Positions 4,650-64,000 of a DNA stretch of 64,000 nucleotides are shown here, piece by piece. The notes under the pieces were generated by a model. It saw only the letters and a list, made by a program, of their open reading frames with translations. It ran no database searches and was not told the DNA's origin. The position numbers were made by a program, and so were the translations under genes. Origin of the DNA: Candidatus Iainarchaeum sp. (GTDB lineage Archaea; Iainarchaeota; Iainarchaeia; Iainarchaeales; JAFCCW01); NCBI GenBank assembly GCA_017609985.1, contig JAFCCW010000004.1:15899-79898 (forward strand), read 5' to 3'. How positions within the stretch are numbered: the first letter of the stretch is position 1; each line of letters starts with the position of its first letter.

Positions 4650-4693
4650 TCAAACACCATTTTTCTTTGTTTCTTTTTTTCTTCTTGCTGAAT

Positions 4694-4816: not shown

Positions 4817-4840
4817 GATATAAACAATCTCCCAGTATTG

Positions 4841-4850
4841 TTTTTTTAAA
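4841..4850 (-). promoter_or_regulatory. TATA-like box (TTTAAAAAAA on minus strand) about 30 nt upstream of tRNA-Leu
   Basis: A/T hexamer at the expected archaeal TATA distance from the tRNA 5' end. Confidence 0.3.
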
Positions 4851-4861
4851 CCACTCGGGGA

Positions 4862-41969: not shown

Positions 41970-42124
41970 GCTTGTCTCACCAATTTAACGCGGATTTTTG
42001 AAGGATTTTGAAATAATTGCTTAAAGCACCAGTTAAAGCCTTGTCATCATATCCAAAAAAACCGCGAGCAGAAATACATCTAATAAACTTTTATCAAATT
42101 TTATACGGAAACTATTAAAAAGCT

Positions 42125-43201: not shown

Positions 43202-43237
43202 TAGCAGTTTTTTAAATATCTGTTTCCTAACTAGTTA

Positions 43238-43807
43238 ATGCTTGCAAAATCAAATATCTCAAAGTCAAACATTTCAAAGCCAAATATTCGGGAAGCAGAC
43301 ATCTTGGAAAAAATACTTCCTTATGTAGAAGATGGCGAGCGTCTTTTAGATGTTGGTTGTGGAAAAGGCAAAATTGCAAAAATAATTTCTCAGAAAAAAG
43401 ATGTTCTTGTTGTTGGAGCAGAAATTTATGATTCCAATTGCTGTATTGACTGCAAGCGGTTTGATGGTTGCAATCTTCCGTTTAAAGATTCTTCTTTTAA
43501 TACTGTTGTTGTTGTAGATGTTATTCATCATGCAGACGATGGTTTGAAGCTCCTTAACGAGCTCTGCAGAGTTGCGTCAAAAAAAGTCATAATTCGAGAT
43601 CATTATTATTCAAGCTGGCTGGGCCTCTTATTTCTCAAATTTGTTGACTGGACAACAAACATAATTCATGGAGTCAGCACTCCGTTTAATTTTAGGACAA
43701 AAAAAGAATGGGAAAAAGACCTTGCTTCTTTGCCCGCAAAAAACTTAAAAATTGAGTATTATCCTAAATTTGGGATAAAAAACATTGTTGCAGTTCTTTT
43801 TCTCTAA
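43238..43807 (+). CDS. class I SAM-dependent methyltransferase
   Basis: Motif I LLDVGCGKGKIAKII and motif post-I VVGAEI. The N-terminus carries an SKSNISKSNISKPNI tandem repeat. Confidence 0.7.
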   Translation: MLAKSNISKSNISKPNIREADILEKILPYVEDGERLLDVGCGKGKIAKIISQKKDVLVVGAEIYDSNCCIDCKRFDGCNLPFKDSSFNTVVVVDVIHHADDGLKLLNELCRVASKKVIIRDHYYSSWLGLLFLKFVDWTTNIIHGVSTPFNFRTKKEWEKDLASLPAKNLKIEYYPKFGIKNIVAVLFL

Positions 43808-43856
43808 TCGTTTTTTGATTGTCTTTTTCTTTAAAATAATTAGTTCGATAAACAGC

Positions 43857-43907
43857 TAACAAGAAATACTTTTAATAAGAAATACTTTTTTTAATAAGAA
43901 ATACTTT
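43857..43907. repeat. 3 tandem copies of a 16-nt unit TAA(C/T)AAGAAATACTTT in the convergent intergenic region
   Basis: Read directly: copies at 43857-43872, 43873-43888, 43892-43907. They lie between the 3' ends of the methyltransferase (+) and ACS-GNAT (-) genes, in a T/A-rich possible termination region. Confidence 0.5.
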
Positions 43908-43965
43908 ATTTCTTTTATTAATATTCTATATATTAAAACCACAATTTACTTCTTTAATAACTTCT

Positions 43966-46659
43966 TTATTTCTTTTTCTTCTTTTTTTCAAATTTCAACA
44001 GAGCCTTGTATGCGTTTTCTTCAGGAATATTCTCCATTTCAAAGCCTCTTGCCTTGCACACATCCACCATTATCCTGTTTTCCTTCATTATTGTGCCGTA
44101 AACCTGCTTTAATCCTCTTTTTCTTGCAATCTCAAGAATATAATCCATCATTTCGCTTCCCAGTCCCTTGCCCTGCCATGGATCCCCCACAACTATTGCA
44201 AACTCTGCACTCTCATTGTTTGGGTCGTGAATAAGCCTTACTACTCCGAGCATTTTTTTCTCACCTTTTTCTTCAGCTTCTGCAATAATTCCTATTTCTC
44301 GGTCATAGTCATTGTGAGTATATCTGACAAGCAAATCATGGGTTACCTCTTTGATTATCCTAAAAAATCTGTACTTCATGGTTTTCTCGCTAAATGTCTT
44401 GAACATTTCTGCTTCCATTGGCTCGTACTCTGGTCTGTTTGGCTTTAGCATGATTTTTTTTCCATCAACATTAATTTCTTTAATCAATTCCTTTGGATAA
44501 GGTCTTATTGCAAGATGTGAATAGGTTTCATCTTTTTCCTTTGGCTCGCTTTCAAGAATAATTCTTGCATCAAGCACAACAGCACCCTGTTCATCAACTA
44601 AAACAGGATTCATATCAACCTCTTTTATTTCCGGAAAGTCAGCAAGCAAATAAGAAAACCTAATAAGCATGTTTTCCAGCTCACGAATATTCGCAGGCTT
44701 CTTGTGCCGGTAACCCTTCATTGCATCAAACACTTTTGTTTCCTCCATAAGCCTTCTTGCAAGAGTCTGTGTTAGGGGTGGCAATGCAATATTTCTGTCC
44801 TTCATAACCTCAACTGCTGTTCCCCCTGCCCCAAAAACAATAACTGAACCAAACAAGCTGTCCTTTTTGGAACCAATCAATACCTCATAACCCTCTTTAT
44901 TAATCATTCTTTGAACAGTGACTCCCTCTACTTTTGCATCTGGATTTGCTTTCTTCACATTCTCCATTATTGTTGTAAAAGCAGTTTCAACTCCTTTTGT
45001 TGACTGCAGGTTAAGAATTACTCCTCCAACATCGCTCTTGTGAGTAACCTCTTTTGAATCAATCTTGAGCACAACAGGAAATCCAATTTTTTCAGCTGCC
45101 TTTCCCGCTTCCAACCCATTCTCTGCCTTAACTGTTTCAACTGAATGAATTCCATACTCTTTCATAAAATTCTTGCTCTCTGCCTCTGTCAAAATCATTC
45201 TCTTTTCCCTGCACGCTCCGGAAATTATTCTTTTCAGTTCTTTCTTGTCTGGATTAATTCCTGAAACAACTGCTTCCGGTGTCTCGTAAAGAAGCTCTAC
45301 ATTGTGCTTGTATCTATACATGTTCATGAAAGTGCTCACAGCATCTTCCGGGGTAAAATAATTTGGAATATTGTTACTGTGAAGAGTATTTACTGCTTCT
45401 CTCACTGAAGTCTCCCCAATAAAAGACGCAAACACTGGCTTATCTGTAAGCTTTGCATTTTCAATAATTGCCTTTGCGCTACCGGTTGCATCACTGCCAT
45501 CCTGTGGAGTAAAGATTGCAAGAATTCCGTCAGCATCAGATTTTTTTGCGCAAACCCTTAGTGCTGAATCATATCTCTCTGCCTTTGCATCTCCCAAGAT
45601 ATCAACTGGATTGCTTCTGCTCCAACACTTTGGAAGAACCGCATCAAGCTCTTTTACTCCCTTACTGTTAAGCGAAGCAAGCTCTCCACCCTTTTCAATT
45701 AATTCATCAGTAGCCATTACTCCTGGTCCGCCTGCGTTTGTAATAATGCAGAGTTTTTTTCCTGAAGGACGGGGCTGCATTCCAAGAACCTGTGCACAGT
45801 TGAACAAGTCTTCAATATCATAAACACGAAGCACTCCAGCTCTCTTGAAAGCAGCATCATATATTGCATCTTCCCCTGCCAAAGCACCAGTGTGGGAAGC
45901 AGCAGCCTCTGCACTCTCCGCAAACCTGCCGCTCTTAACAACAATTATTGGCTTGCTTCTGGCAAAACCTGAAGCAGCAGACATGAAAGATCGCGCATCC
46001 TTTATTGACTCAATATACAAAATAATACTGTGAGTGTGACTGTCTTCTCCAAAATAATCAATCAAATCACCAAAGTCAACGTCAAGCATTGAACCAATCG
46101 AAACAAAGTTGCTGAAACCAATGTTGTTGTAAGTAGCCCAGTCAATAACTGAAGTGCAGAGCGCACCAGACTGGCTTACAAAAGCAACACTTCCTTCCAA
46201 CGGCATCATCGGAGCAAAGCTTGCATTAAGATTCAGTGGAGGCCGAATTATTCCAAGACAATTTGGTCCAATAAGCCTCATGTTCTTTTTTCTGGCAGTT
46301 TCTGCAATATTTTGCTCTAGCTTTTTTCCCTCTTCATCCAACTCTCCAAATCCTGCTGAAACAATTACTGCACCGCCAACGTCTGAATCAGCACATTCTT
46401 GAATCACGCCTGGAACAAACTTTGCAGGAACAGCTACTACTGCTAAATCAATTTCTGCAGGCACTTCTTTTATTGAAGTATACGAGTGTATTCCCTGAAC
46501 ACTTTTATGGTTTGGATTAACTGGGTAAACAGTTCCCTCAAAACCTCTTCCAATCATGTTTTTGAGAAGAGAATAACCAACCGAACCCTGCTTTGAACTG
46601 GCTCCAACCACAGCAATATTCTTGGGAGAAAAAATCTTGTCCAAGTTCTTCGTACTCAA
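43966..46659 (-). CDS. Pat-like protein acetyltransferase: acetyl-CoA synthetase (ADP-forming) alpha/beta-like region fused to C-terminal GNAT domain, 897 aa
   Basis: N-terminal CoA-binding Rossmann (IAVVGASSKQGSVG), a succinyl-CoA-synthetase-like domain, an ATP-grasp, and a C-terminal GNAT (AFxIVVGDPWQGKGLGSEMMDYILEIARKRG). Confidence 0.8.
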   Translation of the reverse strand: MSTKNLDKIFSPKNIAVVGASSKQGSVGYSLLKNMIGRGFEGTVYPVNPNHKSVQGIHSYTSIKEVPAEIDLAVVAVPAKFVPGVIQECADSDVGGAVIVSAGFGELDEEGKKLEQNIAETARKKNMRLIGPNCLGIIRPPLNLNASFAPMMPLEGSVAFVSQSGALCTSVIDWATYNNIGFSNFVSIGSMLDVDFGDLIDYFGEDSHTHSIILYIESIKDARSFMSAASGFARSKPIIVVKSGRFAESAEAAASHTGALAGEDAIYDAAFKRAGVLRVYDIEDLFNCAQVLGMQPRPSGKKLCIITNAGGPGVMATDELIEKGGELASLNSKGVKELDAVLPKCWSRSNPVDILGDAKAERYDSALRVCAKKSDADGILAIFTPQDGSDATGSAKAIIENAKLTDKPVFASFIGETSVREAVNTLHSNNIPNYFTPEDAVSTFMNMYRYKHNVELLYETPEAVVSGINPDKKELKRIISGACREKRMILTEAESKNFMKEYGIHSVETVKAENGLEAGKAAEKIGFPVVLKIDSKEVTHKSDVGGVILNLQSTKGVETAFTTIMENVKKANPDAKVEGVTVQRMINKEGYEVLIGSKKDSLFGSVIVFGAGGTAVEVMKDRNIALPPLTQTLARRLMEETKVFDAMKGYRHKKPANIRELENMLIRFSYLLADFPEIKEVDMNPVLVDEQGAVVLDARIILESEPKEKDETYSHLAIRPYPKELIKEINVDGKKIMLKPNRPEYEPMEAEMFKTFSEKTMKYRFFRIIKEVTHDLLVRYTHNDYDREIGIIAEAEEKGEKKMLGVVRLIHDPNNESAEFAIVVGDPWQGKGLGSEMMDYILEIARKRGLKQVYGTIMKENRIMVDVCKARGFEMENIPEENAYKALLKFEKKKKKK

Positions 46660-51023: not shown

Positions 51024-51758
51024 CTATGAAAAAACTAGTTTAAACAAATACATTAAGCTTATTCCAATCGCAAAAGCTCCAAGCGCAGCAACAGACTTTT
51101 TCCAGCTTGTTTCCTTTTTTATTTCCGGAATCAAGCCAGATGCTGCAATGTACATAAAACTTCCAGCAGTAAATGGGATAAGAGAAACAGCAAGCCAGCC
51201 AATATTTCCCATTATAAAATACCCTACAAGTCCGCCGATTATAACAGTCAGTGCAGAAGCAAAATTAAACAAAAGAGCTTTCATTTTGCTGAATCCGCCA
51301 TAAACAAGAACTCCAAAATCGCCTATCTCCTGTGGAATTTCATGAAGTGCAACAGCAAAAAACGTGGTTATTCCAAGCTCAAAACTGGTTAGAAAAGATG
51401 CAGCTAAAATTAACCCATCAATAAAATTATGAAAACCATCTCCAATAAGAATCAGGTATGACAAAGAATGCTGTTCACATTTTCCGCTGTGACAGTGATG
51501 CCAGTGAAGAAATTTTTCAATCGCCAAAAAAACACTAAATCCAATTATTGCAAGAACAAACGCACCAATTCCTGGAATTTGCTCTGCAGCTTCAGGCAGC
51601 AGATGGAGTAAGGCACCGCCCATAAAAGCTCCTGCTGATAGTCCAACAAGAACAAGCAGTATCTTGTCCAAAATCTTGTCATTAATTGCAAGTGATACAA
51701 TGCCTACAAATGCAATAAGTGCAATCGCAAAACTGCTTCCTAAAATCCATTCAAGTAT
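51024..51758 (-). CDS. ZIP-family divalent metal transporter (ZupT-like); start codon unresolved
   Basis: HNFIDGLILAASF and HEIPQEIGDFGVL ZIP signatures. The ORF track starts it at TTG 51671. The preceding 29 in-frame codons (ILEWILGSSFAIALIAFVGIVSLAINDKI) encode a typical ZIP TM1 and begin right after the TAG of the upstream gene; there is no ATG, GTG or TTG among them. Confidence 0.6.
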   Translation of the reverse strand: MLEWILGSSFAIALIAFVGIVSLAINDKILDKILLVLVGLSAGAFMGGALLHLLPEAAEQIPGIGAFVLAIIGFSVFLAIEKFLHWHHCHSGKCEQHSLSYLILIGDGFHNFIDGLILAASFLTSFELGITTFFAVALHEIPQEIGDFGVLVYGGFSKMKALLFNFASALTVIIGGLVGYFIMGNIGWLAVSLIPFTAGSFMYIAASGLIPEIKKETSWKKSVAALGAFAIGISLMYLFKLVFS

Positions 51759-52649
51759 CTAATCACCTATTTCTCCAAGAACACTTTCAACAATTGGCTC
51801 GAACAGTTTTTCAATCTTTGTACTGAATTCAACAGCAGGTTTCAGTTCCACAAGAGACTTTACAAAATCCTTGTCATAGGGGATTTTTCCAAGAACAGGA
51901 ATCCCACTCTCTTTCGCAAAGATCTCTATTTCCTCTGTTTTTTCAGGATTCAAATCCCATTGATTAATTATTATTCCATAAGGAATTCCAAATTGTTCCA
52001 CAACCTGTAGGGCTCGTTTAAGGTCACTAAATCCGCTGGGGGTTGTTTCAGCTATTCCAACAACAAAATCGCTTTCCCTTACTGCCGCAATAACCGGGCA
52101 ACCAATTCCAGCAGCAGCATCCACTATAACCAATTCTGTATTTTCTTCTTCCGCAAGCTCTCTTGCAGCTTGCTTTACTTCATCAACAACTTTTCCAGAA
52201 CCAGATTCTCCCATTTCAAGCTGGGCTCCAACCATCTTGAACCCATAATCTGTTTCTCCTCTCACTGCACTTGCATTCTCTATTTCCACAAGCTTGATTG
52301 CTCCAGCAGGACAGGCAAGAGCACATGCTCCGCAGCCCTCACAAAGAAATCTATTGAACACTGGTTTCTCTCCTGGTTTCCACGAAATCGCATTAAAGGC
52401 ACAAATCTCCGCACACTTTCCGCAAGCAAGACATTTTTCTTCTGAAAAACTTGACTTGTGAGCCGCCTTTATTTTTTCTACTTCTTTTAACTTGTTTTTA
52501 AGACCAAGGGAAATTGCAAGATTTGGAGCATCAACATCAGCATCAACTGCCACAATCTTTTTTTCTTTTGCAATCATTACTGCAAGCGATGCGGTTATGG
52601 TTGTCTTTCCCGTGCCACCCTTTCCTGACAAAATAGTTAGGGTCTTCAT
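51759..52649 (-). CDS. MinD/ParA-superfamily P-loop ATPase with inserted 2x[4Fe-4S] ferredoxin domain (COG1149-type)
   Basis: Deviant Walker A GKGGTGKTT, the insert CLACGKCAEIC...CEGCGACALACP, and a downstream ATPase half. Confidence 0.8.
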   Translation of the reverse strand: MKTLTILSGKGGTGKTTITASLAVMIAKEKKIVAVDADVDAPNLAISLGLKNKLKEVEKIKAAHKSSFSEEKCLACGKCAEICAFNAISWKPGEKPVFNRFLCEGCGACALACPAGAIKLVEIENASAVRGETDYGFKMVGAQLEMGESGSGKVVDEVKQAARELAEEENTELVIVDAAAGIGCPVIAAVRESDFVVGIAETTPSGFSDLKRALQVVEQFGIPYGIIINQWDLNPEKTEEIEIFAKESGIPVLGKIPYDKDFVKSLVELKPAVEFSTKIEKLFEPIVESVLGEIGD

Positions 52650-53488
52650 TTTAACACCTCCACTGCATCAGCTATTGCTTCAATTTCCTTTCCACTAATT
52701 GCCTCACCCAAAGAATATTTTTTTCTTATTTCTTTACTGTAAGGAATTTTTCCAACAAGCTCTGCATTAAATTTCTTTGCAATCTCTTCCACTTTTTCAC
52801 TTTCTGCAATTCCTGCCTTGTTCAAAATAAGGTTTTTTGAAATTCCAAGCACGTCAAGAAGCTTTAAAATAAGCTGCACATCATGCTCCCCCAAGGGAGT
52901 TGGCTCTGTCACAGCAAACGCATGTTCCACACCGACCAGTGCAGAAATAACATTGCAATGCGTTCCAGCAGCAGTATCTACAAGAACATAGTCAAATTCT
53001 TTCTCTATTTCAGTTGCCTTCTTCATCAAAGCATGGACAATTGGAGAGGCTTCTTCAAAACCTATTTTTATTTCTCCAGTGAGAAGAGTAATTCCATCTT
53101 TTTCTCCTTTGTAAATAGCACCTATATTTTGCGTGTCATAGCTTATTGCTCCCACTGGACATGCAAGACTGCAGGCACCGCATCCAGTGCACTGTTCTTT
53201 TACAAGAATAGGAGTTCTGTTTTTTACAAAAACAATAGCATTCTCCATGCAGTGCTCTGAGCACTTTCCGCACTTGGTGCATTTTTTCGAATCAAAAACA
53301 GGAATTTTTCCCTTAATATCATCAATTTTTTTTCTCTCGATTGAAAGAATCAAGTCGTCATTAGGACAGTCTACATCCGCGTCCACTAAAAGAACTTTCT
53401 TTCCTCTTTTCCCAAGCTCTGTAGCCAAAGCTGTTGAGACAAGGCTCTTGCCTGTCCCTCCCTTTCCGCCAGTTATTCCAAGTTTCAT
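52646..53488 (-). CDS. MinD/ParA-superfamily P-loop ATPase with inserted ferredoxin domain (paralogue, COG1149-type)
   Basis: GGKGGTGKSL; CTKCGKCSEHC...CTGCGACSLACP. Overlaps the downstream paralogue by 4 nt. Confidence 0.8.
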   Translation of the reverse strand: MKLGITGGKGGTGKSLVSTALATELGKRGKKVLLVDADVDCPNDDLILSIERKKIDDIKGKIPVFDSKKCTKCGKCSEHCMENAIVFVKNRTPILVKEQCTGCGACSLACPVGAISYDTQNIGAIYKGEKDGITLLTGEIKIGFEEASPIVHALMKKATEIEKEFDYVLVDTAAGTHCNVISALVGVEHAFAVTEPTPLGEHDVQLILKLLDVLGISKNLILNKAGIAESEKVEEIAKKFNAELVGKIPYSKEIRKKYSLGEAISGKEIEAIADAVEVLK

Positions 53489-53490
53489 TT

Positions 53491-53829
53491 TTACACCTCA
53501 AAGTCTTCCAAAGCTTTTATTACCTGCTGCATATACATTAAGGCAGGACCCCCGCCCATCATTGTGGCAACCCATGCAGCTTCCATTATTTCTTCTTTTT
53601 TAGCTCCGCTCTCCAACGCATTTTTTATGTGAAATGCAATGCACCATTTGCATTGAGAATTCACTGATAATGCAACTAAGATAAGTTCTTTGTTTTTTTT
53701 AGATATTGCTCCTTCTTTTTCCACAGCATGCATAAATTCGTGAAAACTTTTCATTTGTTCAGGATATTCTTTTCCAAACTGTGCAAGATTTTTATTTATC
53801 TCCTCTAAGTATTTGTTTGAATCATTCAT
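53491..53829 (-). CDS. carboxymuconolactone decarboxylase-family (AhpD-like) protein
   Basis: AhpD-core CxxC-H motif NSQCKWCIAFH within an all-alpha ~110-aa protein. Confidence 0.7.
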   Translation of the reverse strand: MNDSNKYLEEINKNLAQFGKEYPEQMKSFHEFMHAVEKEGAISKKNKELILVALSVNSQCKWCIAFHIKNALESGAKKEEIMEAAWVATMMGGGPALMYMQQVIKALEDFEV

Positions 53830-53840
53830 TCTATTGCCTC

Positions 53841-54173
53841 CTAATGCCCACAGCTTTCTGTTAGATCTTCAAGAAAGTCAAGGTTTTCAACAACTTCTTT
53901 AACTGTTCTATAATCGCCAGTTTTAAGAATTATTTTTCTATTTTTACATTCCTCTATTGCATTCATTCCCAGCCCGTGTGAAAAAATAGCATCTACTTTT
54001 TTTTCATCCAATGCAAGCACTGGCGAACAACCCGAACTCATTTGGTTAACTTTCACAAACTCTAAACTTTTCGTTTCAGAATCATACACTGCGAGAAAAA
54101 CAACATGCCCAAAATGGGGTGCGATTTCAGATTCCAATCCTTTATTATCTAATACTGGAATTCCAATTTTCAT
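53841..54173 (-). CDS. NifX/NifB-C-terminal-like (dinitrogenase FeMo-cofactor-binding fold, COG1433) protein
   Basis: MKIGIPVLDNKGLESEIAPHFGHVVFLAVYD...VDAIFSHGLGMNAIEEC, the family N-terminal signature. Confidence 0.75.
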   Translation of the reverse strand: MKIGIPVLDNKGLESEIAPHFGHVVFLAVYDSETKSLEFVKVNQMSSGCSPVLALDEKKVDAIFSHGLGMNAIEECKNRKIILKTGDYRTVKEVVENLDFLEDLTESCGH

Positions 54174-54442
54174 TCCGAATCAGCTCCGTTTTTTGTTTCT
54201 TCTAACTTTTTTGCATTTTGCTCTTCAATTAATTTTATTCCAAGCCCTTTAAACCCATAAAAAGAAAAATATGCTGAAGCAAAGAAAACAATTAACAAAA
54301 AGACATTTCCAAAAGAAAGCAATCCAAACACAATAAACATTGCAGGATAAAGATAACGTCTATACCAGCAGCTTTCCTCGTTTACAGTAAAATAATATAT
54401 AAGCGTAAACAGTAACGCAATAATTCCAAAAATTTCATTCAT
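54170..54442 (-). CDS. small two-TM membrane protein (90 aa)
   Basis: Two hydrophobic helices. It overlaps its neighbours by 4 and 8 nt, which suggests operon coupling. Confidence 0.45.
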   Translation of the reverse strand: MNEIFGIIALLFTLIYYFTVNEESCWYRRYLYPAMFIVFGLLSFGNVFLLIVFFASAYFSFYGFKGLGIKLIEEQNAKKLEETKNGADSE

Positions 54443-55700
54443 TCAAACCATCTCCTTTCTTTGTGTGCTTATCAAGCCTTTCAAGTTTTCCCCCTGCAAA
54501 ATTTTTTGCAACCTCTTCAACAGTTTTTCCCTTAAGAAAATAAATATCTACGAAATGGTCTCTGATTGTGTGAAAAGAAATTTCCCCAAGATTTGAAGTA
54601 ACAAGAGCATCTGCTTTCTCTTTGCAGATAAGATTGGATGCGTCCAACCCTGCTTTGACATTTTTTTTAGTGAATGGATTTTTCTTGCAGTAATGCTCTA
54701 CAATTTCTCCGCTGTCTGAATTAATTGTTACAAAAATGAATTTCTTTGCTCTGCCAAACTTTCCCAAGGCAATACTTTCAAGACCATTATCTTCTTCAAC
54801 AGGAATAGCAATTTTTTGTTCAACTGTCTTAAATGGTTCTATGTGAATGCTTATTCTTTCAACTTCGGGAATTGCATTCATAACTCTTTTCTCGATTCTG
54901 TCAGAAATTGCATGAGCTCTCTGCACATCAATATTTTTCTTGATTTTTATTATAATTTCTCCAAAAATAAACGGACCTGCTTTTCTCAGCATAATGTTTC
55001 CTATTCCTGCCACGTTTGGAACACTGCTTACAATTCTTGTAACCCTGCTTTCAACTTCCTTGCTTGCGCCAACATCCATTAGCGCAAAAACAGAGTCTCT
55101 TGCATTTTCAAAACCGATTTTTAAAATCATCAAAGAAATTGCAATAGTTATTGCTCCCTCTACATATGGAACACTAAAATAAGAAAGCAGAATAGCAATG
55201 AAAACAATTCCTGACGCAAGAATATCAACTTTTTTGTCGTCAGCATTTGCCTTAAGCGAATCAGACTTTGTTTCTTCACCAATCTTTTTCAAATATCTTT
55301 CATTCCAAAAGCTTGCAATAATTGAAACCCCTGCTACTCCAAGAGCAATCAAAGGCATTTCAATATTTGATGGCAAAAATAAAGCAAGATATCCATTGTA
55401 CAATGTTTCAATTGCAGCGTAAAGAATTACAATTGAAACAGTGAGAGCTGCAAGATTTTCTGCCTTAAAATATCCATAGGGAAATTTTTCATCTGGTTCT
55501 CTTTGCGCAATTTTTAGCCCAAACCAGGCTGCTGCTCCTGCAACAAGGTCTGTTCCAGAATGAAGCGCATCACTAATCAATACAACGCTTCCAGACATCA
55601 AACCAGCTACTCCCTTTCCCAAAGCAAGAGCTAAAGAAATCAATGCAGTAACTGCTGCTGCCTTTTCTCCCCTCTTGAGAGACTTTTGCTTTTCATTCAT
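54435..55700 (-). CDS. cation diffusion facilitator (CDF) transporter with an extra C-terminal NifX-like (COG1433) domain
   Basis: CDF TM core (SDALHSGTDLVAG...) and a cytosolic CTD, then ~125 aa KIAIPVEEDNGLESIALGKFGRAKKFIFVTIN...ADALVTSNLGE matching the NifX-like fold. Confidence 0.8.
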   Translation of the reverse strand: MNEKQKSLKRGEKAAAVTALISLALALGKGVAGLMSGSVVLISDALHSGTDLVAGAAAWFGLKIAQREPDEKFPYGYFKAENLAALTVSIVILYAAIETLYNGYLALFLPSNIEMPLIALGVAGVSIIASFWNERYLKKIGEETKSDSLKANADDKKVDILASGIVFIAILLSYFSVPYVEGAITIAISLMILKIGFENARDSVFALMDVGASKEVESRVTRIVSSVPNVAGIGNIMLRKAGPFIFGEIIIKIKKNIDVQRAHAISDRIEKRVMNAIPEVERISIHIEPFKTVEQKIAIPVEEDNGLESIALGKFGRAKKFIFVTINSDSGEIVEHYCKKNPFTKKNVKAGLDASNLICKEKADALVTSNLGEISFHTIRDHFVDIYFLKGKTVEEVAKNFAGGKLERLDKHTKKGDGLNE

Positions 55701-56161
55701 TGCATTCCTCTTCTTCCTGCGCCCATTCCTCGCCCCTGACCAGCGCCTGCTCCTCTGCCTTGGCCGGCTCCAAAGCCTGCGCCCGTGGTTGGCTTTCCAC
55801 CGCTTCCCATTGGACCGGGCATGCTTAACTCTTGAAGCTTTCCGCTGGCTGCTTCAATAACACTTTTTTCAATGCTTCCGCCATTTCCAACAAAAACCTT
55901 TATTCCTAATTCATTCATTACTCCAAAAGCTCTTGGCCCCATGGCTCCGGTTACTATTGCTTCAACTCCCTCGTTTCCAATAAGCTGTGCTGCGCTGATT
56001 CCAGCCCCGCCAGCTTGCCCAACAGCTGTGTTTTGCAAACTTTTTATTTCTTTGACTTCTTCTCCTTCAACTTCTGCTATTACAAAAAATGGACATCTGC
56101 CAAAAATAGGGCTTGACTCTGCATCCAATCCTTGTCCTTGAGAACTTACTGCTATCTTCAA
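55697..56161 (-). CDS. NifX-like (COG1433) protein with Gly/Arg-rich C-terminal tail
   Basis: MKIAVSSQGQGLDAESSPIFGRCPFFVIAEV...VEAIVTGAMGPRA. Tail GAGFGAGQGRGAGAGQGRGMGAGRRGMQ. Confidence 0.7.
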   Translation of the reverse strand: MKIAVSSQGQGLDAESSPIFGRCPFFVIAEVEGEEVKEIKSLQNTAVGQAGGAGISAAQLIGNEGVEAIVTGAMGPRAFGVMNELGIKVFVGNGGSIEKSVIEAASGKLQELSMPGPMGSGGKPTTGAGFGAGQGRGAGAGQGRGMGAGRRGMQ

Positions 56162-56254
56162 AAAAAATCACCTCTAAACATAACTATGCTTTTCTTTTAT
56201 TTTAACTTATTTTATTGTAACTTGTCTTCCTTTTCTCGTGTTTTCTTATTTTTT

Positions 56255-56410
56255 CTATTCCCTAATCATTGCTGTTCCGCACTTTGAGCATTTTTGCTGA
56301 AAGCAAGGCAAGCCAGTTGAATGTGCTGACTTTGTACCGCACGAAGGACAGACACATCCTCCACCAGGCCCCTGTGCAAAACCACCCATTCTTCCTCTTC
56401 CGCTCTGCAT
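56255..56410 (-). CDS. small Gly/Arg- and Cys-rich protein (51 aa), possible zinc ribbon
   Basis: Manual translation: MQSGRGRMGGFAQGPGGGCVCPSCGTKSAHSTGLPCFQQKCSKCGTAMIRE. Below the ORF-track size cutoff. Confidence 0.45.
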   Translation of the reverse strand: MQSGRGRMGGFAQGPGGGCVCPSCGTKSAHSTGLPCFQQKCSKCGTAMIRE

Positions 56411-56464
56411 TATTATCAACTCCTTTTCTATTTATTTAAATATAGAAAAGAAAGAAAAACTGAC

Positions 56465-56851
56465 TTACTTTTCTAGTTCAGTCAGCCTTTTTTTGACTGC
56501 ATTCAGTTCTTGTTCCAATGCGCTGGCTTCCTGATTTAAAGCTTCAATTTCCTGTTGCTTAAAGTCCTGTTGCGCTACTGGTGTAGACGCATTTGCTGGA
56601 ACATTATATGCTGGTGCGCCAAGATATTGCTGTGCCTGCACTCCTGCCACAAAAAATCTTCCGCGAAAGCCTCTTCCTCGACCAAAGCCAACTCCAAAGC
56701 CTCTGCCTCTACCGAAACCTCTTCCCGCTCCAAATCCAGGGCCTGTTGCATATCCTGGTGCATTGTATCCTGCACAATATCCTGTGCCTCTTCCTGTCAT
56801 TGAACCCATTCCATTAGGTCCTGTTCTGTTTCCAAATGGCATTTTTACCAA
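56465..56851 (-). CDS. DUF5320-like protein: Gly/Arg/Phe low-complexity N-region plus C-terminal coiled coil
   Basis: MPFGNRTGPNGMGSMTGRGTGYCAGY...GRGFGRGRGFGVGFGRGRGFRGRFF, then a heptad-rich EIEALNQEASALEQELNAVKKRLTELEK. The likely true start is MPFGN at about 56842. Confidence 0.6.
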   Translation of the reverse strand: MVKMPFGNRTGPNGMGSMTGRGTGYCAGYNAPGYATGPGFGAGRGFGRGRGFGVGFGRGRGFRGRFFVAGVQAQQYLGAPAYNVPANASTPVAQQDFKQQEIEALNQEASALEQELNAVKKRLTELEK

Positions 56852-56973
56852 CCTCCGTTGTTTCTATTTTAACAATTTCCCTTTTGAAGCCCTGCTTTTT
56901 TTCCTTTCGCTCTCGGACTTCTGCTTCTTGGTCCTGTTCCGTCTCTATCCGGCATTTTACACCACCTCTTTTT

Positions 56974-57345
56974 TTACATCCATTTCATTCCTCTTCTGCC
57001 TCTTCCTCTGAAGAAAGCAGGCTGGAAAGGAATTTCCTCAATATTCTCTGATATGTCATCAATCATTTCCCCAAGGCTTTCAAAGATTGCTCCTGCCTTT
57101 CCGCTTCCCATACTGTAAAAAGAAAAATTTCCTGACTTCCTTGTCTTAACCAGCCCGACGCTTTTAAGTGCAGACAGGTGATGGGAAACAAGAGGCTGTG
57201 ACTGGTTAACCTCTATTGCAATCTGTGAAACAGATTTCTCCCCATCCTTAAGCAACTTCATTATCAAAAGCCTGTTCGGGTCTGAGAGCACGCTGAAAAC
57301 GCGTGCAAAGACAAGCGCTTCCTTTCTTTCCTTAGGTGAAATCAT
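56974..57345 (-). CDS. ArsR/SmtB-family metalloregulatory transcription factor with RG-rich C-terminal tail
   Basis: wHTH LSDPNRLLIMKLL...SVSQIAIEVNQSQPLVSHHLSALKSVGLV. Tail FFRGRGRRGMKWM. Confidence 0.8.
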   Translation of the reverse strand: MISPKERKEALVFARVFSVLSDPNRLLIMKLLKDGEKSVSQIAIEVNQSQPLVSHHLSALKSVGLVKTRKSGNFSFYSMGSGKAGAIFESLGEMIDDISENIEEIPFQPAFFRGRGRRGMKWM

Positions 57346-57367
57346 TTTACTCTATACTAATTAGCAC

Positions 57368-57391
57368 ACAAACATCTATATAAATGTTTGT
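57368..57391. promoter_or_regulatory. palindromic operator ACAAACAT-CTATATAA-ATGTTTGT overlapping a TATA-like box, upstream of the ArsR-family gene
   Basis: 8-bp perfect inverted repeat around a TATATAA core, about 25-45 nt upstream of the ATG at 57345. A third ATGTTT half-site lies at 57396-57401. Confidence 0.4.
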
Positions 57392-58665: not shown

Positions 58666-59076
58666 TCAGTTTTCCTCCTTGATTTTAAGCAAATCAAACA
58701 CAATACATAAACCATGTGCTGTTTTAATATTGTTTCGTTTGCACAGGCTTATTGCCTTTTCTGATTCAGAGCCTGGCTGCATCCAGATATTTTTTATCCC
58801 AAGCTCAATGCACTGCGTTACAATCTGTTCAGTAATTTTTGGAGAAACAACAGTTATTACTGTGTCCGGCTTGTGCGGAGTTGATTTCAATTCAGGATAA
58901 CAGGGCTTGTTTCCAATTTGATTGTGTTTAGGGTTTATTGGAACAGCGTTAATTCCCGCACCCAACAGCGCCTCATATATTTTTCTGCCCCACTTCTCTG
59001 GCTTCTGTGAAACACCAACAACAGCAACATAATTGCCTTTCCTAAAAAATTCTTCAGGATTCATTTTTGTTTCCAA
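58666..59076 (-). CDS. CoA-binding domain protein (YccU/YneT-like Rossmann)
   Basis: VAVVGVSQKPEKWGRKIYEALLGAGINAVPINPK and a WMQPG motif. Confidence 0.7.
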   Translation of the reverse strand: METKMNPEEFFRKGNYVAVVGVSQKPEKWGRKIYEALLGAGINAVPINPKHNQIGNKPCYPELKSTPHKPDTVITVVSPKITEQIVTQCIELGIKNIWMQPGSESEKAISLCKRNNIKTAHGLCIVFDLLKIKEEN

Positions 59077-59386
59077 AAATCTTGCGTATCAAAGATTTTT
59101 TAATCCCAAGCGCTTTCTCCAGCTTGTTTATAAGAGCTCCCTCTTCAGGGGTTCCAACAAACCTAAACAGCTGGTTTTCATCACCATCAACACAAACAAT
59201 TGTGGGGTAAGCACTTATCCCAAATTTGCCTGAAAGCTCTTTTGCCTCTGGAGTTTTTGCCCTGACCTTCCTGTATTCAAGACCATGGCTTTCATGGCTG
59301 AGGGCAACTTTTTTTGCAAGCGATGCTGCCTTTGGGCAGTGAGGGCAACCTGATGAAACAAAAACAAGCAATTCCATGGCTATCAA
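59054..59386 (-). CDS. thioredoxin-fold protein (CPHC active site)
   Basis: VFVSSGCPHCPKA, cis-Pro region YPTIV. Confidence 0.7.
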   Translation of the reverse strand: MIAMELLVFVSSGCPHCPKAASLAKKVALSHESHGLEYRKVRAKTPEAKELSGKFGISAYPTIVCVDGDENQLFRFVGTPEEGALINKLEKALGIKKSLIRKIFGNKNES

Positions 59387-59387
59387 T

Positions 59388-59672
59388 TCACACTTTTACA
59401 AATAGCCTGCAATGGCACTGTCCGTCCTTTTCAATTTCTTCTTCATGATAAACACAAGGGCAAATTATTTTTTTGTCCTCTTCTTTGTCTCCTGTAACAC
59501 GCCTGCAAGGGCAGTATTGTTCTCCATGTTTTTCTTCATTCAACAGAAGCCCTTTTATTATGCCGTCTGCTATTTTCCTGTCAGGGTTAATTTTTATCCC
59601 AGTTTCTTCAGCAAATTTTTCTGATTTTTCCCGTACTTCAACCATTTTTTTTTCAAGTTCTTTTTCTTCCAT
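59388..59672 (-). CDS. ferredoxin:thioredoxin reductase catalytic-subunit-like protein (FTR-like)
   Basis: CPC...CPC...CHC triad (YCPCRRV, ICPCVYH, CHCRLF). Confidence 0.7.
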   Translation of the reverse strand: MEEKELEKKMVEVREKSEKFAEETGIKINPDRKIADGIIKGLLLNEEKHGEQYCPCRRVTGDKEEDKKIICPCVYHEEEIEKDGQCHCRLFVKV

Positions 59673-59851
59673 TAATTTCCCCCCATTTCAATTGCATTGT
59701 TTGGGCAGGCCCTGATACAGGCACCACATTTCCTGCAGTTTTCCGGATGAACAACAACTGCCTTGCCATTTATTAGCTCAAGCACGCCAAAAGGGCAGGC
59801 TTTCACGCAAACACCACAGCCTTCACATTTTCCCTCAATTATTTTTACCAT
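59672..59851 (-). CDS. 2x[4Fe-4S] ferredoxin (59 aa)
   Basis: Manual translation MVKIIEGKCEGCGVCVKACPFGVLELINGKAVVVHPENCRKCGACIRACPNNAIEMGGN. Its stop overlaps the FTR start (TAATG). Confidence 0.75.
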   Translation of the reverse strand: MVKIIEGKCEGCGVCVKACPFGVLELINGKAVVVHPENCRKCGACIRACPNNAIEMGGN

Positions 59852-60846
59852 TAATCCGCCTCCTCAATGCAAATCTCTTTTCTTTTAATTGCTCTGATTG
59901 TTTTAATCACTAAAAGCAATACAACCAAATTTAGAAATAAGAATATTCCCCACGAAGCTATTTTAAAAAATTCCAGTTTTGTTTCATGGTACATTAAGAA
60001 TGTTCCAATAGCAAGTGCGTCTATTGGGAATGAATAAGCCCACCAGGACAGGTAAAACTTAATCTTGGAGAACAGTTTATACTGAAACAAAATTAGAATA
60101 AACAGAAATAACCCAAAATAATAAAGCAAATTGCCAATCGGGGTAAGTCCGCCTAGCAATTTTGTCAGGGCAATAAATCCAATTACAGGCGGCGCGAACA
60201 GAATAAAAAAGGTCGGAATCAATTTATCATCTATGGCTTGGTGAAATATTACCCTGTGCATAACCAAAGTAAACAAGATAAGCCACCAGAAAATTCCAAT
60301 GCTAAAAAAGAACCAGGATAACTCCGGAGAGAAATGTTTTATTCCCGCAATAGGAATTAATATGCTTCCAACAACAGGAATAAACCAGGATGGATTAATA
60401 TGGCGTATTTCAAATTTATCATGTTTAATCCAGGAAGACATTATTATGATTGTAAAAATAAACTGGATTGTGACTCCCATCCACCAAGCATATTTTGATA
60501 TTGTGAGATTTAAACCCAGATAGATAATGCTGACAATCAAAAACAATTTTGCAATTATTGGGTAAAAATTGAGCTTAATCGGATGGTTAAACTCTTTCTT
60601 GACTTCCAGAGGATACTTAGCTAATTTCAAAAGATAAATTATAAAAATAACCAATATTACGATTATTGAAAAATACAGCAAATAACCGCTAACCATAAAA
60701 GGCAATTCCAGTATCTGCTCTGCTTTCTGCCATGCAAGAGTAAAACCAATTAAACCCAAGGCAATAGCCAAAAAAGATATTGGAAAATTTCTTAGCCGAC
60801 TAAGGTCTACAAATTTACCTGCTTTTTTCAGTTTAGTTTTTATCAT
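59851..60846 (-). CDS. TDT/TehA/SLAC1-family anion (C4-dicarboxylate / tellurite-resistance type) transporter
   Basis: About 10 TM helices with the family N-terminus FPISFLAIALGLIGFTLAW. Confidence 0.7.
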   Translation of the reverse strand: MIKTKLKKAGKFVDLSRLRNFPISFLAIALGLIGFTLAWQKAEQILELPFMVSGYLLYFSIIVILVIFIIYLLKLAKYPLEVKKEFNHPIKLNFYPIIAKLFLIVSIIYLGLNLTISKYAWWMGVTIQFIFTIIIMSSWIKHDKFEIRHINPSWFIPVVGSILIPIAGIKHFSPELSWFFFSIGIFWWLILFTLVMHRVIFHQAIDDKLIPTFFILFAPPVIGFIALTKLLGGLTPIGNLLYYFGLFLFILILFQYKLFSKIKFYLSWWAYSFPIDALAIGTFLMYHETKLEFFKIASWGIFLFLNLVVLLLVIKTIRAIKRKEICIEEAD

Positions 60847-60915
60847 TTTATTCCCTTCATCCTGCTCTTACCTGCATAAATATCTTGTCCTGCTTTTCCA
60901 CACCACAACGCATAT

Positions 60916-61710
60916 TTATATTCCCTCTGCCTTCAAGAATGGGCACTTGTTTTCTTTTGCCTTTCCATCAAGCACAGCGCGGATAAATTCATTGCAAGAA
61001 GCAAACCCGCATTTTCCGCAATTTCTATTGGGGATTCTTGCCTTCAGGCTTTTGCCAAGCTTGTATCTCTTCAGTGTCTCATCAGAATCAACTGTTTTGT
61101 TTCCATAACAATAACCGCAAACAGCAGTAGGCATTGCGTGCTTTAAAGTAATCTTTCCTCTGATCTCTGGGCTGTTTCTGATTGCCTCGGCGATGTCAAT
61201 TGCGCCCTCGCCTGTCAAACCATTTGACTCAACAAGCAATGTTCCTTTTTCAGTCACCTTAACAACTTCTGACCTGAAAATTTCCCTCTCAGCCTGAGAA
61301 ATTAAATCCCCCTTGGTTAAAGCAACAACATCAGCCTGTGTCAGCAAAGGCCCATAGCTCGATGGTTTTCCGGATAAAATGTTTAACACGTTTATTGCAA
61401 GACCTTCATGTATGTACGGAGAGCACCTTAAGCACAAGCCAGCTGTTTCAAGCAGGATAAGGTCTTTGTCTTTGTTACTTTCAATGATTTTTGGAATTTC
61501 AAGCGCAGCATAATGGTCTGGGCAAACATCTCCTGAAATCTTTTTTTCAGTGCTTATCCCAAACTTTTCTTTTATCAATATATGGTCTTCAGTGTTCAGA
61601 ACATCAAATTTGACATAATGAATATTCAAATCTTTAAGTTCCTGAATAATAAACTTTATTGCACTAGTTTTTCCGCTTCCGGGCGTACCGCCAACAATAA
61701 CAAGTTTCAT
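60916..61710 (-). CDS. divergent HypB/UreG-family (G3E) P-loop NTPase with C-terminal Cys-rich extension
   Basis: Collinear with HypB: GTPGSGKTSA (P-loop), GDVCPDHYAAL (cf. CHLDA metal site), LLETAGLCLRCSPY (cf. ENVGNLVCP), TKGDL (cf. NKxD), SNGLTGEGAIDI (cf. SAKTGEG). Extra tail CGYCYGNK...CGKCGFASCNEF...CPF. Confidence 0.6.
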   Translation of the reverse strand: MKLVIVGGTPGSGKTSAIKFIIQELKDLNIHYVKFDVLNTEDHILIKEKFGISTEKKISGDVCPDHYAALEIPKIIESNKDKDLILLETAGLCLRCSPYIHEGLAINVLNILSGKPSSYGPLLTQADVVALTKGDLISQAEREIFRSEVVKVTEKGTLLVESNGLTGEGAIDIAEAIRNSPEIRGKITLKHAMPTAVCGYCYGNKTVDSDETLKRYKLGKSLKARIPNRNCGKCGFASCNEFIRAVLDGKAKENKCPFLKAEGI

Positions 61711-63467: not shown

Positions 63468-64000
63468 TCAGGTACAGAAATTTTCAATACGCATTTGACT
63501 TTCCCTGTCCAGCTGAACAAACGGCAATGCCTGTTTCACAATCACTCCGCAGGCCTTCAATTGTCTTGTCTCTTTTATCCTGCTCTGCTCTCTTGCTTTC
63601 ATAAGCCTGTCAGCTCCAACAGGACCTATACCCGGAACTCTCAACAACTCTTCTCTTCCTGCACTGTTCACATCCACTGGAAACTTTTCCGGCATTCCAC
63701 TTGCCACTGCTATTTTCACATCTCTCTGAAGCGAAAGATTTCCTTTTTCATTCAAAGCATTCTTCACTTCCTTTAATTCAAATCCATAAACCCTCATTAA
63801 CCAGTCTGACTGGTAAAGCCTGTGTTCTCTTATTTTCCTTTCGCCTTCCATTTCTTCCAGCGCGGTTCCCTTTACCGGCTCAAAAGCAGAAAAATAAGTT
63901 CTCCACAGCTGCGTCTTGCCATATAACTCACTCATCTTTCCAAGTATCTCCAAATCGCTTTCTCCTCCTGCTCCAAGAATAAACTGGGTTGTAAAACTTT
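63468..64000 (-). CDS. helix-hairpin-helix DNA-binding C-terminal region of a larger protein (partial; likely continues past window end), possibly the C-terminus of a DNA modification/repair radical-SAM-type protein
   Basis: HhH motif VDVNSAGREELLRVPGIGPVGADRLMKAR. The ORF-track start is a TTG, and the reading frame stays open to position 64000 (..SFTTQFILGAGGESDLEIL..). Confidence 0.45.
   Translation of the reverse strand, partial: SFTTQFILGAGGESDLEILGKMSELYGKTQLWRTYFSAFEPVKGTALEEMEGERKIREHRLYQSDWLMRVYGFELKEVKNALNEKGNLSLQRDVKIAVASGMPEKFPVDVNSAGREELLRVPGIGPVGADRLMKAREQSRIKETRQLKACGVIVKQALPFVQLDRESQMRIENFCT

Follow-up and report, generated by a model that had tools for sequence, protein, structure and literature searches.

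A conserved archaeal gene cluster that joins NifX-like proteins and paired ferredoxin-type ATPases to a CDF metal transporter

A 64,000-nucleotide stretch of contig JAFCCW010000004.1 from Candidatus Iainarchaeum sp., hereafter the window, encodes on its minus strand a cluster of eleven genes (51024-57345) in which a CDF-family exporter carrying a C-terminal NifX domain (CDF::NifX) lies among standalone NifX-like proteins, two MinD-type ATPases with inserted ferredoxin domains (MinD-Fer4 ATPases, MinD_A and MinD_B) and small Gly/Arg-rich modules. By surveying related loci, we found that the linkage of these genes is not incidental and that the conserved core comprises DUF134 and/or a Cys6 module, a NifX-like protein of the IssA type, CDF::NifX, the two ATPases and DUF5320. 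The main new result is that these modules are shuffled between partners: GR-Cys6 occurs on DUF134 and on NifX proteins, DUF5320 is fused to NifX, the two ATPases are fused to each other, and an ArsR regulator bears a tail of the same kind. We read the locus as an archaeal (DPANN-type) version of the orange protein (ORP) system, in which IssA-like NifX carriers are joined to metal transport for the ATP- and redox-driven storage and mobilisation of anionic iron-sulfur (Fe-S) species, coupled to Fe2+ export; we judge the chances of this reading to be evenly poised.

Pfam and NCBIfam profile searches of the open reading frames (ORFs) of the window gave the following cluster.

51024..51758, minus strand: ZIP-family transporter (Zip 9e-38)
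51759..52649, minus strand: MinD_B, MinD-type ATPase with an inserted 2x[4Fe-4S] ferredoxin domain (CbiA/ParA and 2xFer4), overlapping MinD_A by 4 nucleotides (nt)
52646..53488, minus strand: MinD_A, MinD-type ATPase with an inserted 2x[4Fe-4S] ferredoxin domain (CbiA/ParA and 2xFer4)
53491..53829, minus strand: AhpD/CMD-family protein, 112 residues, CKWC (CxxC) motif (CMD 9e-20)
53841..54173, minus strand: second-type NifX-like protein, 110 residues (PF02579, Nitro_FeMo-Co, 6e-11)
54170..54442, minus strand: two-helix membrane protein, 90 residues, CWYRRY motif (no Pfam match)
54435..55700, minus strand: CDF::NifX fusion (Cation_efflux 2e-48, ZT_dimer 3e-16, C-terminal NifX domain as Nitro_FeMo-Co 1e-10)
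55697..56161, minus strand: NifX_GR, IssA-type NifX-like protein, 154 residues, TTG start (PF02579 1e-20)
56255..56410, minus strand: GR-Cys6 peptide, 51 residues (by homology; no Pfam family above cutoff)
56465..56842, minus strand: DUF5320 protein, 125 residues (PF17253 7e-23)
56869..56955, minus strand: basic 28-residue ORF MPDRDGTGPRSRSPRAKGKKAGLQKGNC, between ArsR and DUF5320 (ORF list)
56974..57345, minus strand: ArsR-family regulator, 123 residues (HTH_5, PF01022, 1e-16)

A preliminary description of this DNA had proposed eleven co-directional genes, and we recovered the same genes together with every domain it had named: two MinD-type ATPases with 2x[4Fe-4S] inserts, three NifX-like domains of which one is fused to a CDF exporter, an AhpD-like CxxC protein, a DUF5320-type protein, a Cys-rich peptide of 51 residues that is a real conserved gene, and an ArsR-family regulator. 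Its list missed the 28-residue ORF. The archaeal origin that it proposed agrees with the transcription and translation genes of the window, which encodes RpoA'/A''/B'/B'' (a split RNA polymerase B), aEF-2, EF-1alpha and SecY; the closest relatives of the CDF fusion with a named source are mostly DPANN lineages. It also saw no nitrogenase genes, and none was found among the annotated window ORFs in a non-exhaustive check. From NifX_GR through MinD_B, neighbouring genes overlap by 4-8 nt or sit at most 11 nt apart, which is typical of a single operon.

Conservation of the cluster and shuffling of its modules

We collected 90 non-duplicate loci anchored on CDF::NifX from a metagenome scan (425 relatives), and 86 of the 90 anchors carried the fused NifX domain. 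The loci were sampled by similarity to this one anchor and lie mostly on metagenomic contigs of uncertain taxonomy. Shares were computed over the 26 fused loci flanked on each side by 3 kb or more, counting genes within 8 kb of the anchor that were found by tblastn with the window proteins, a search by which divergent partners can be missed. First, 92% of these loci had the standalone IssA-type NifX and 88% had DUF134 and/or the Cys6 module; each of the two MinD-Fer4 paralogs reached 77%, and DUF5320 62%. Homologs of eight genes flanking the window cluster, used as controls, reached 0-8%. The neighbourhood comparison envisaged in the preliminary description thus finds the core held together at 62-92% against 0-8% for flanking genes, and not scattered. 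Second, the remaining genes of the window cluster were rare: ZIP and the second-type NifX were each found in 15% of the loci, ArsR in 4%, and the AhpD-like gene and the 90-residue membrane protein in 0%. Of the eleven-gene system first proposed, then, only a part is core: the AhpD-like gene turned up in none of the loci (0/26), and conservation of ZIP, the tailed ArsR and the 90-residue protein is limited to close relatives. Third, a metallo-beta-lactamase-fold protein that is absent from the window cluster was present in 62% of the loci.

The usual gene order was DUF134 - NifX - CDF::NifX - ATPase A - ATPase B. After anchors were merged at 70% identity, NifX and both ATPases were present in 12 of 14 lineages, and DUF5320 or ArsR as an alternative anchor returned the same partners. 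The DUF5320 anchor also led to bacteria, where one locus (L098) holds a full ORP-type cluster, with three NifX, two MinD-Fer4 and Mrp/NBP35 along with a sigma54 activator, and another (L097) holds only part of such a cluster, namely one NifX and a sigma54 activator. In an Asgard archaeon, DUF5320 lies beside a DtxR-family iron-dependent repressor and ZIP. Additional Fe-S proteins are encoded in sister loci: radical SAM enzymes, a standalone Mrp/NBP35 (L001, L094 and L098) and an FeS protein of the RnfB type.

The 51-residue peptide has the pattern GRGRMGG...GPGGxCxCPxCG-x4-H-x3-G-x-PC-x4-C-xx-CG and is 52-64% identical to modules in sister loci, with dozens of relatives; matches of up to 64% identity lie inside the DUF134 genes of L008, L010 and L012. 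By homology, it is a standalone copy of a widespread module, which we call GR-Cys6 and which we found in four forms: as small proteins of about 35-85 residues in many loci, at the C-terminus of DUF134 helix-turn-helix regulators, at the C-terminus of tailed NifX proteins and, once, after a DUF5320-type N-terminal motif. Bacterial copies stand alone in L099 (58 residues) or are fused to NifX in L097. In the window, no DUF134 helix-turn-helix was detected by Pfam among the cluster ORFs, and the 54-nt gap in front of the Cys peptide is too short for one.

Other partners are fused as well. A DUF5320-type coiled coil is joined to NifX in five loci (L006, L017, L023, L041 and L062), and the Halanaerobiaceae contig L099 encodes at 4063-5904 a 613-residue fusion of the two ATPases, A half first, next to two NifX genes, the 58-residue GR-Cys6 peptide and DUF5320. 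The CDF::NifX architecture itself belongs to a large family, with at least 120 homolog clusters at 43-68% identity that all have the three domains. The NifX-DUF5320, GR-Cys6 and A-B ATPase fusions suggest that the proteins of the cluster act together physically; translational coupling and gene fusions are indirect support for one physical complex. The literature searched contained no description of the CDF::NifX fusion and its conserved operon, of the GR-Cys6 module or of the tailed ArsR, and nothing relevant on DUF5320 or linking it to such clusters. The survey thus gives a context to DUF5320, the DUF134 C-terminus and the standalone GR-Cys6 peptides, three modules without an assigned function in the resources consulted.

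Carriers, paired ATPases and the exporter

NifX_GR consists of an acidic globular domain (isoelectric point, pI, of 4.6) and a 42-residue Gly/Arg tail with 17 Gly (40%), 5 cationic residues, 1 aromatic, no acidic residue, no Cys and a pI of 12. Cationic Gly-rich tails were found on 45 of 75 homologous NifX ORFs in related loci. A NifX-family domain followed by a disordered Gly-rich cationic tail is the design of IssA (P. furiosus PF2025, Q8TZG9), which NifX_GR resembles in part and with which we compared it through the published description only; IssA stores Fe and S as thioferrate, rebuilds [4Fe-4S] ferredoxin with dithiothreitol/dithiol and carries one Zn per protein (PMC5524996). The nearest solved relative of NifX_GR is MTH1175 (6.8e-26), which Vaccaro et al. 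2017 place in the IssA clade (PMC5524996); their uncharacterised 'IssX' clade counts with IssA among the closest known systems. IssA-clade proteins rise in pyrite-grown Methanococcus voltae with thioferrate-like iron (PMC8516115). An acidic domain with a basic tail would suit an anionic Fe-S polymer.

The likeness to IssA is not complete. The IssA tail as published is 70 residues long, contains 15 Gly, 1 Cys and 7 cationic and 14 aromatic residues and has a pI of 10.7 (PMC5524996), compared with 42 residues, one aromatic and no Cys in NifX_GR, whose pI as a whole protein is 6.5. Here, a segment with the aromatics and Cys of the IssA tail sits on the separate DUF5320 protein, which elsewhere occurs fused to NifX: residues 1-72 contain 24 Gly, 9 Arg, 11 aromatics and 1 Cys, with a pI of 11.9, and fit the published description better than the NifX_GR tail does. 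The DUF5320 match (82.2 bits, cutoff 27) covers positions 1-99 of the 99 of the Pfam model, and the protein is built of an N-terminal MPxGxRTGP motif, the 72-residue Gly/Arg/aromatic segment and a C-terminal coiled coil; we counted at least 3264 clusters of homologs. Finally, no dedicated ATPases, CDF fusion or regulator are described for IssA.

NifX_GR also matches the D. gigas ORP structure (2wfb, 4e-11), and this bears on an alternative in which the cluster handles Mo/W-Cu thiometallates. The NifX proteins would then carry thiomolybdate-type anions on their cationic tails, as the D. gigas orange protein carries [S2MoS2CuS2MoS2]; anionic thiometallates would fit such tails, and the content of the cluster is orthologous to that of ORP-type bacterial clusters. 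However, NifX_GR is far nearer to MTH1175 than to ORP, and neither Mo/W transport nor molybdopterin genes occur among the annotated window genes or the listed gene tables of related loci. Moreover, the linked transporters, CDF and ZIP, carry divalent cations, and components of the ORP complex hold Fe-S clusters (PMC6345978). We regard thiometallate handling as very improbable.

The second-type NifX protein has an HFGH motif and ends in Cys-x-His (..ESCGH); a C-terminal C-x(1-2)-H is also present on its archaeal and bacterial counterparts. As in nitrogenase assembly (NifX/NafY/NifB-C with NifH), small NifX-fold proteins would act as Fe-S carriers between partners. In contrast to nitrogenase assembly, the annotated window ORFs include no NifB radical-SAM fusion or nitrogenase genes, and the NifX domains lack conserved cluster-ligating Cys, save for the C-terminal Cys-x-His of the second type.

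We then compared the ATPases in alignments of 42 A and 31 B orthologs. The eight ferredoxin Cys are invariant in the A orthologs and are all kept in at least 29 of the 31 B orthologs. MinD_A additionally shows an invariant C41 and an invariant switch-II G175-x-H177-C178, and MinD_B has G181-x-G183-C184-P185 in at least 30 of 31 orthologs. Identities are 45-58% between A sequences and 46-53% between B sequences, and only 31-37% between A and B; A and B form separate orthologous groups across archaea and bacteria. The best bacterial match of MinD_A is the first ATPase of the ORP-type cluster and the N-terminal half of the fused A-B protein; that of MinD_B is the second ATPase and the C-terminal half. 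Both belong to the deviant Walker A (KGG) class, and no solved structure spans a whole MinD-Fer4 protein. The switch-II Cys lies seven residues downstream of the Walker B Asp, which we take to be the spacing of the cluster-ligating Cys132 of NifH, a resemblance only. NifH is likewise a dimeric deviant-Walker-A ATPase with a switch-II Cys, in which ATP gates electrons, whereas the window ATPases carry inserted ferredoxin domains and come as two paralogs that we propose to form a heterodimer.

Given their similarity to the MinD family, the ATPases might instead act in cell division or positioning, and ORP was first described as a putative cell-division complex, of which MrpORP localises to the cell pole (PMC6345978). 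A delivery of nickel and F430 to methyl-coenzyme M reductase is also conceivable, since an ANME-2a cluster with CDF, two 4Fe-4S proteins, NifX and a P-loop NTPase has been speculatively linked to F430 (PMC12622379). However, MinD equivalog models scored 66 bits against cutoffs of 202-213, and the genes conserved beside the ATPases encode metal transporters, Fe-S carriers and metal-type regulators. Moreover, the cluster spans DPANN archaea, Asgard archaea and bacteria, which are not known to have methyl-coenzyme M reductase, so it can have no general role in F430 delivery. Gene context, equivalog scores and taxonomic spread thus leave division and F430 delivery hardly credible.

The exporter matches TIGR01297 with 221.6 bits (cutoff 82.35). 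It has six transmembrane (TM) helices, and its AlphaFold2 model (pLDDT 80) has YiiP as the top Foldseek match. Transport site A consists of H47/D51 in TM2 and D156/D160 in TM5, and across the family it follows the pattern (H/D/E)xxxD + (D/E)xxxD, without His in TM5. In the cytoplasmic sensor domain H263, H286 and E288 are invariant, while the NifX domain has no invariant Cys, keeps R317 and has H377 and R380 conserved in 90% of sequences or more; in some members of the family it is followed by an Arg/Gly tail. The six helices, the ZT_dimer domain and the sensor-site His/Glu recall the Fe/Mn exporters FieF/YiiP, MamM/MamB and MntE, from which the protein differs by its site A pattern, by the extra NifX domain and by equivalog scores that are all below cutoff: the top specific NCBIfam models are MamM (164/350 bits), MamB (157/350), MntE (145/500) and FieF (128/420), and the ZitB model reaches 63 bits (cutoff 408). 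A carboxylate-rich site A without a TM5 His, together with this ranking of sub-threshold models, favours Fe/Mn as cargo.

The locus may, on the other hand, be an island for zinc (or Co/Ni/Cd) homeostasis, in which ArsR/SmtB senses, ZIP imports and CDF exports, with the NifX and Cys6 proteins as buffers or sensors and the ATPases as CooC/HypB/CobW-like metallochaperones. ArsR, ZIP and CDF are the usual zinc set, the top structural matches of the CDF model are the zinc transporters YiiP and ZnT, and the invariant H263, H286 and E288 are residues of the CDF sensor site. There is also a resemblance of the Cys6 module to zinc ribbons, at which Pfam hints weakly, and IssA holds Zn (PMC5524996). However, the ArsR of the window contains no Cys, and by inspection against known motifs it has none of the ArsR/SmtB ligand sites, neither the alpha3/alpha3N Cys motif nor the alpha5 Asp/His/Glu set; its only two His form a pair in the DNA-recognition helix (SHHL), and Cys is likewise missing from its six tailed homologs. 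Furthermore, the usual regulator of the family is DUF134, and the neighbour in the Asgard locus is an iron repressor. The CDF has D/E in TM5 where Zn-CDFs typically have His, ZIP is present in few loci, and the constant partners are Fe-S proteins (the 2x[4Fe-4S] ATPases, Mrp/NBP35, RnfB-type FeS and radical SAM proteins). We find a zinc island improbable.

The preliminary description held that genes of these families had no assigned function, which is somewhat outdated, as ORP holds Fe-S clusters (PMC6345978) and IssA stores thioferrate (PMC5524996). The Desulfovibrio ORP complex has been purified, with Fe-S clusters in Orp3, Orp4 and Orp8, which co-purify, and MrpORP can deliver clusters (PMC6345978). 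The likeness of the window cluster to ORP, drawn from gene content, ORP-type bacterial loci and published accounts of ORP (PMC6345978, PMC3897727) and not from the DVU proteins themselves, concerns several features. Both are anaerobe systems with two paralogous MinD-type ATPases bearing two [4Fe-4S] motifs each (Orp3/Orp4), and the window A/B pair corresponds one-to-one to the two ATPases of the bacterial ORP-type cluster. Both have single-domain NifX proteins ('Di-Nase', PF02579; Orp5/Orp8), of which the window has two standalone and one fused, and bacterial clusters of ORP content (L097-L099) hold the DUF5320/GR-Cys6 modules. In contrast, the window has no Mrp-NifX fusion (MrpORP = Orp9, NF041136; partial matches of 21-60 bits against a cutoff of 450), and it adds CDF::NifX, ZIP, the small membrane protein and the AhpD-like protein. 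The ORP genes form a divergent pair of operons controlled by sigma54 and its cognate enhancer-binding protein, whereas the window cluster is co-directional with an ArsR (elsewhere DUF134).

Fe-S storage coupled to iron export as a proposed model

The preliminary description had taken the locus for a system that loads, traffics or stores a metal or a cofactor of the Fe-S type, and it named the right class, because the domains were recovered and the linkage is conserved across loci. We built a model on the observed domain content, the conserved linkage and order, the paralogy and fusion of A and B, the module fusions and the conserved tails; what we infer from sequence is that the ligand is Fe-S, which metal is transported and in which direction, what ATP and electrons do and how the regulator senses. 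First, the NifX_GR tail and DUF5320 would bind or wrap an anionic inorganic Fe-S species, thioferrate-like or a larger cluster, DUF5320 contributing its Gly/Arg/aromatic segment and coiled coil. Second, an A/B heterodimer with four [4Fe-4S] clusters and a NifH-like switch-II Cys site would use ATP to gate electron transfer and thereby build or dissolve the Fe-S species. Third, the NifX domain beneath the cytoplasmic sensor domain of CDF would receive or sense the Fe-S species, and the CDF would pump out released Fe2+, possibly Mn2+. Fourth, ZIP would import divalent metal. Fifth, the AhpD-like CxxC protein might supply a dithiol reductant. Sixth, ArsR (elsewhere DUF134) would control expression through a carrier-type cationic tail or a GR-Cys6 module.

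Several points weigh against this model. We infer the identity of metal and ligand from sequence, gene context and published relatives, and IssA entered the comparison by description alone. The tail of NifX_GR has a single aromatic and no Cys, and the pI of 6.5 stands against an IssA clade that is defined partly by high pI. The D. gigas protein from which ORP has its name holds a sulfide cluster of Mo and Cu instead of Fe-S. A combination of ArsR, ZIP and CDF is classically a zinc system, and among solved CDF structures zinc transporters come nearest; the CDF subfamily models are all sub-cutoff, and the metal assignment rests on few residues. ZIP and the AhpD-like protein have weak roles in the model because neither gene (15% and 0%) is a conserved part of the cluster.

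The ORP system is widespread in anaerobes and has been purified as a complex, but has been without an assigned function since 2011, and IssA-type storage is known from one organism. The locus and its approximately 90 relatives tie ORP to IssA, and both to a transporter and regulators. The old question of what ORP does becomes directly testable with the metal exporter as a handle. If the Fe-S reading is true, the cluster would explain the buffering of iron and sulfide in very small anaerobic archaea of sulfidic sediments, with no recourse to ferritin-type chemistry.

Regulators, accessory genes and the rest of the window

The ArsR of the window ends in a conserved cationic tail, PAFFRGRGRRGMKWM. 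In the protein collection we found only 7 close relatives, and the six close homologs all retain the tail, as ..GRGRRG(R/M)(K/R)WM or the one-residue-shorter ..GRRGRRWM, and the tail is the best-conserved part of the protein. A GRGRR-x-[W/F] ending is shared by the ArsR tail, many NifX tails and some CDF::NifX proteins. Two independent contigs (L094 and L095) place a tailed ArsR in the same type of cluster, beside ZIP, CDF::NifX or two MinD-Fer4, two NifX, DUF5320 and a homolog of the 90-residue membrane protein. In the lineage of the window, the ArsR fold has thus apparently replaced the DUF134 fold as regulator, carrying the cationic tail typical of the system.

Such tails could be protein-binding elements. 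ParA/MinD ATPases are partner-activated, and short cationic peptides stimulate their hydrolysis. The Gly/Arg tails might therefore be docking or ATPase-activating peptides for a MinD_A/B hub that loads and unloads NifX, CDF::NifX, DUF5320 and Cys6, the tailed ArsR being controlled by sequestration; Fe-S cargo would be compatible with this. A C-terminal motif common to ArsR, NifX orthologs and some CDF::NifX proteins, GRGRR-x(0-3)-[W/F] in its general form, points in this direction, as do the conservation of the ArsR tail and the deviant Walker A class of the ATPases. However, IssA binds thioferrate in vitro without an ATPase (PMC5524996), and 23% of the well-flanked loci have no MinD-Fer4 within 8 kb though tails are present. 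We hold docking to be an unlikely function of the tails.

In a bolder extension of the Fe-S model, one anionic inorganic Fe-S polymer would serve simultaneously as cargo, as scaffold and as signal. The GRGRR-x-[W/F] tail or GR-Cys6 is shared by the transcription factor, the storage protein, the coiled-coil protein and the NifX domain of the exporter, and all four would assemble on the polymer and report its amount; the Cys-free ArsR would sense the polymer through its disordered tail instead of a metal pocket, and CDF::NifX would be fed directly from the mineral store. We consider this extension doubtful.

Three further sequence elements may bear on expression of the cluster.

57368-57391: perfect palindrome ACAAACAT-N8-ATGTTTGT over a TATA-like TTTATATAG, with ArsR starting 23 nt downstream
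56451-56494: terminator-like hairpin 3' of DUF5320 (repeat search)
56423-56450: second palindrome CTTTTCTAT-N10-ATAGAAAAG enclosing a TATA-like TTTAAATA, in front of the Cys peptide gene (repeat search)

The palindrome upstream of ArsR, with no mismatch, is the single such copy in the 64-kb window and is a candidate operator and promoter of ArsR. The preliminary description had called it the operator of ArsR; it exists and is unique, but its right arm is kept only in part (about 5/8) in two orthologous promoters. What these conserve is the block TAAACAyATAAACAwAyrTTTATATr, that is ATAAACA twice and a TATA box, which includes the left arm. The whole palindrome as a conserved operator is thus weakened. 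Because of the hairpin after DUF5320 and the palindrome and TATA-like box of the Cys peptide, the cluster looks split into three or more transcription units, one for ArsR and DUF5320, one for the Cys peptide and one running from NifX to ZIP. An Rfam scan of the window returned one tRNA only, with no riboswitch or known RNA in the cluster.

The 28-residue ORF starts with MPDRDGTGP, nine residues that match the N-terminal motif of DUF5320. L094 has a basic ORF of 29 residues at the equivalent position and L095 has none. Duplication of the 5' end of DUF5320 may have left this ORF as a remnant, or it may encode a genuine small protein; its status as a gene is uncertain.

The ZIP importer of the preliminary description was upheld as a family member (130.7 bits, cutoff 35.1), with a correction at its start. 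The gene is called from a TTG at 51671 (215 residues), but the frame is open through 51672-51758, back to the TAG stop of the preceding ATPase gene, and there encodes a conserved first TM helix, ILEWILGSSFAIALIAFVGIVSLAIN. This part contains no ATG, GTG or TTG, its first in-frame codons being ATA CTT GAA. The ortholog in L001 (246 residues) has the same N-terminus, and the ZupT model scores 49.6 bits (cutoff 252), aligned from model position 35. Translation may begin at a rare codon, the assembly may contain a sequencing error here, or the protein may be truncated at its N-terminus.

The 90-residue membrane protein is translationally coupled to CDF::NifX and has homologs in the clusters of L094 (95 residues) and L095 (102 residues). 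The AhpD-like protein matches ahpD_dom with 50.2 bits (cutoff 27.8) and TIGR04169 with 64 (cutoff 120). Its absence from all 26 well-flanked loci weakens it as a component of the system, and it is a lineage-specific accessory.

Some genes recur around related clusters. The metallo-beta-lactamase-fold protein, of approximately 220-260 residues, accompanies CDF::NifX in L001, L008, L010, L014-L018 and others. A CoA_binding_2 protein (58666-59076, minus strand), encoded 1.3 kb upstream of ArsR, is found near CDF::NifX in 7 of the 90 loci (L002, L014, L030, L048, L050, L070 and L074) and is the sole recurring flanking control, save for a single Thiamine_BP match in L049. Uracil-DNA glycosylase genes lie near the cluster in L001 (6361-7029), L008, L010 and L094, and a radical SAM gene lies near it in L008 and within it in L010; in the window, a fragment at 63468-63953, about 6 kb upstream of the cluster, matches the radical SAM family linked to uracil-DNA glycosylase. 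The recurrence of uracil-DNA glycosylase is probably unrelated synteny.

Just upstream of the cluster, 59054-61710 (minus strand) encodes a thioredoxin, the catalytic subunit of a ferredoxin:thioredoxin reductase, a 2x[4Fe-4S] ferredoxin, a TehA/SLAC1-type anion channel and a 264-residue CobW/HypB-like P-loop protein with a C-terminal PF04060 'FeS' domain. The same domain makes up a 91-residue protein inside the L001 cluster. Because of these genes and of the FeS domain in L001, a redox/Fe-S theme may extend beyond 51024-57391.

Elsewhere in the window, nearly all genes of at least 150 residues lie on the minus strand along its whole length (1-64000), an unusually long co-directional run, and GC skew is negative in every 2-kb bin but 42001-44000, the site of two plus-strand genes. 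Amid ribosomal-protein and translation genes, two minus-strand ORFs, 23415-25496 (693 residues) and 651-1850 (399 residues), have no Pfam match; the former is also without an NCBIfam match at the thresholds used, and the latter was scanned against Pfam alone. Finally, 43966-46659 (minus strand) encodes an 897-residue ADP-forming acyl-CoA synthetase (alpha and beta), whose extra C-terminal residues 731-869 resemble the acetyltransferase Pat.

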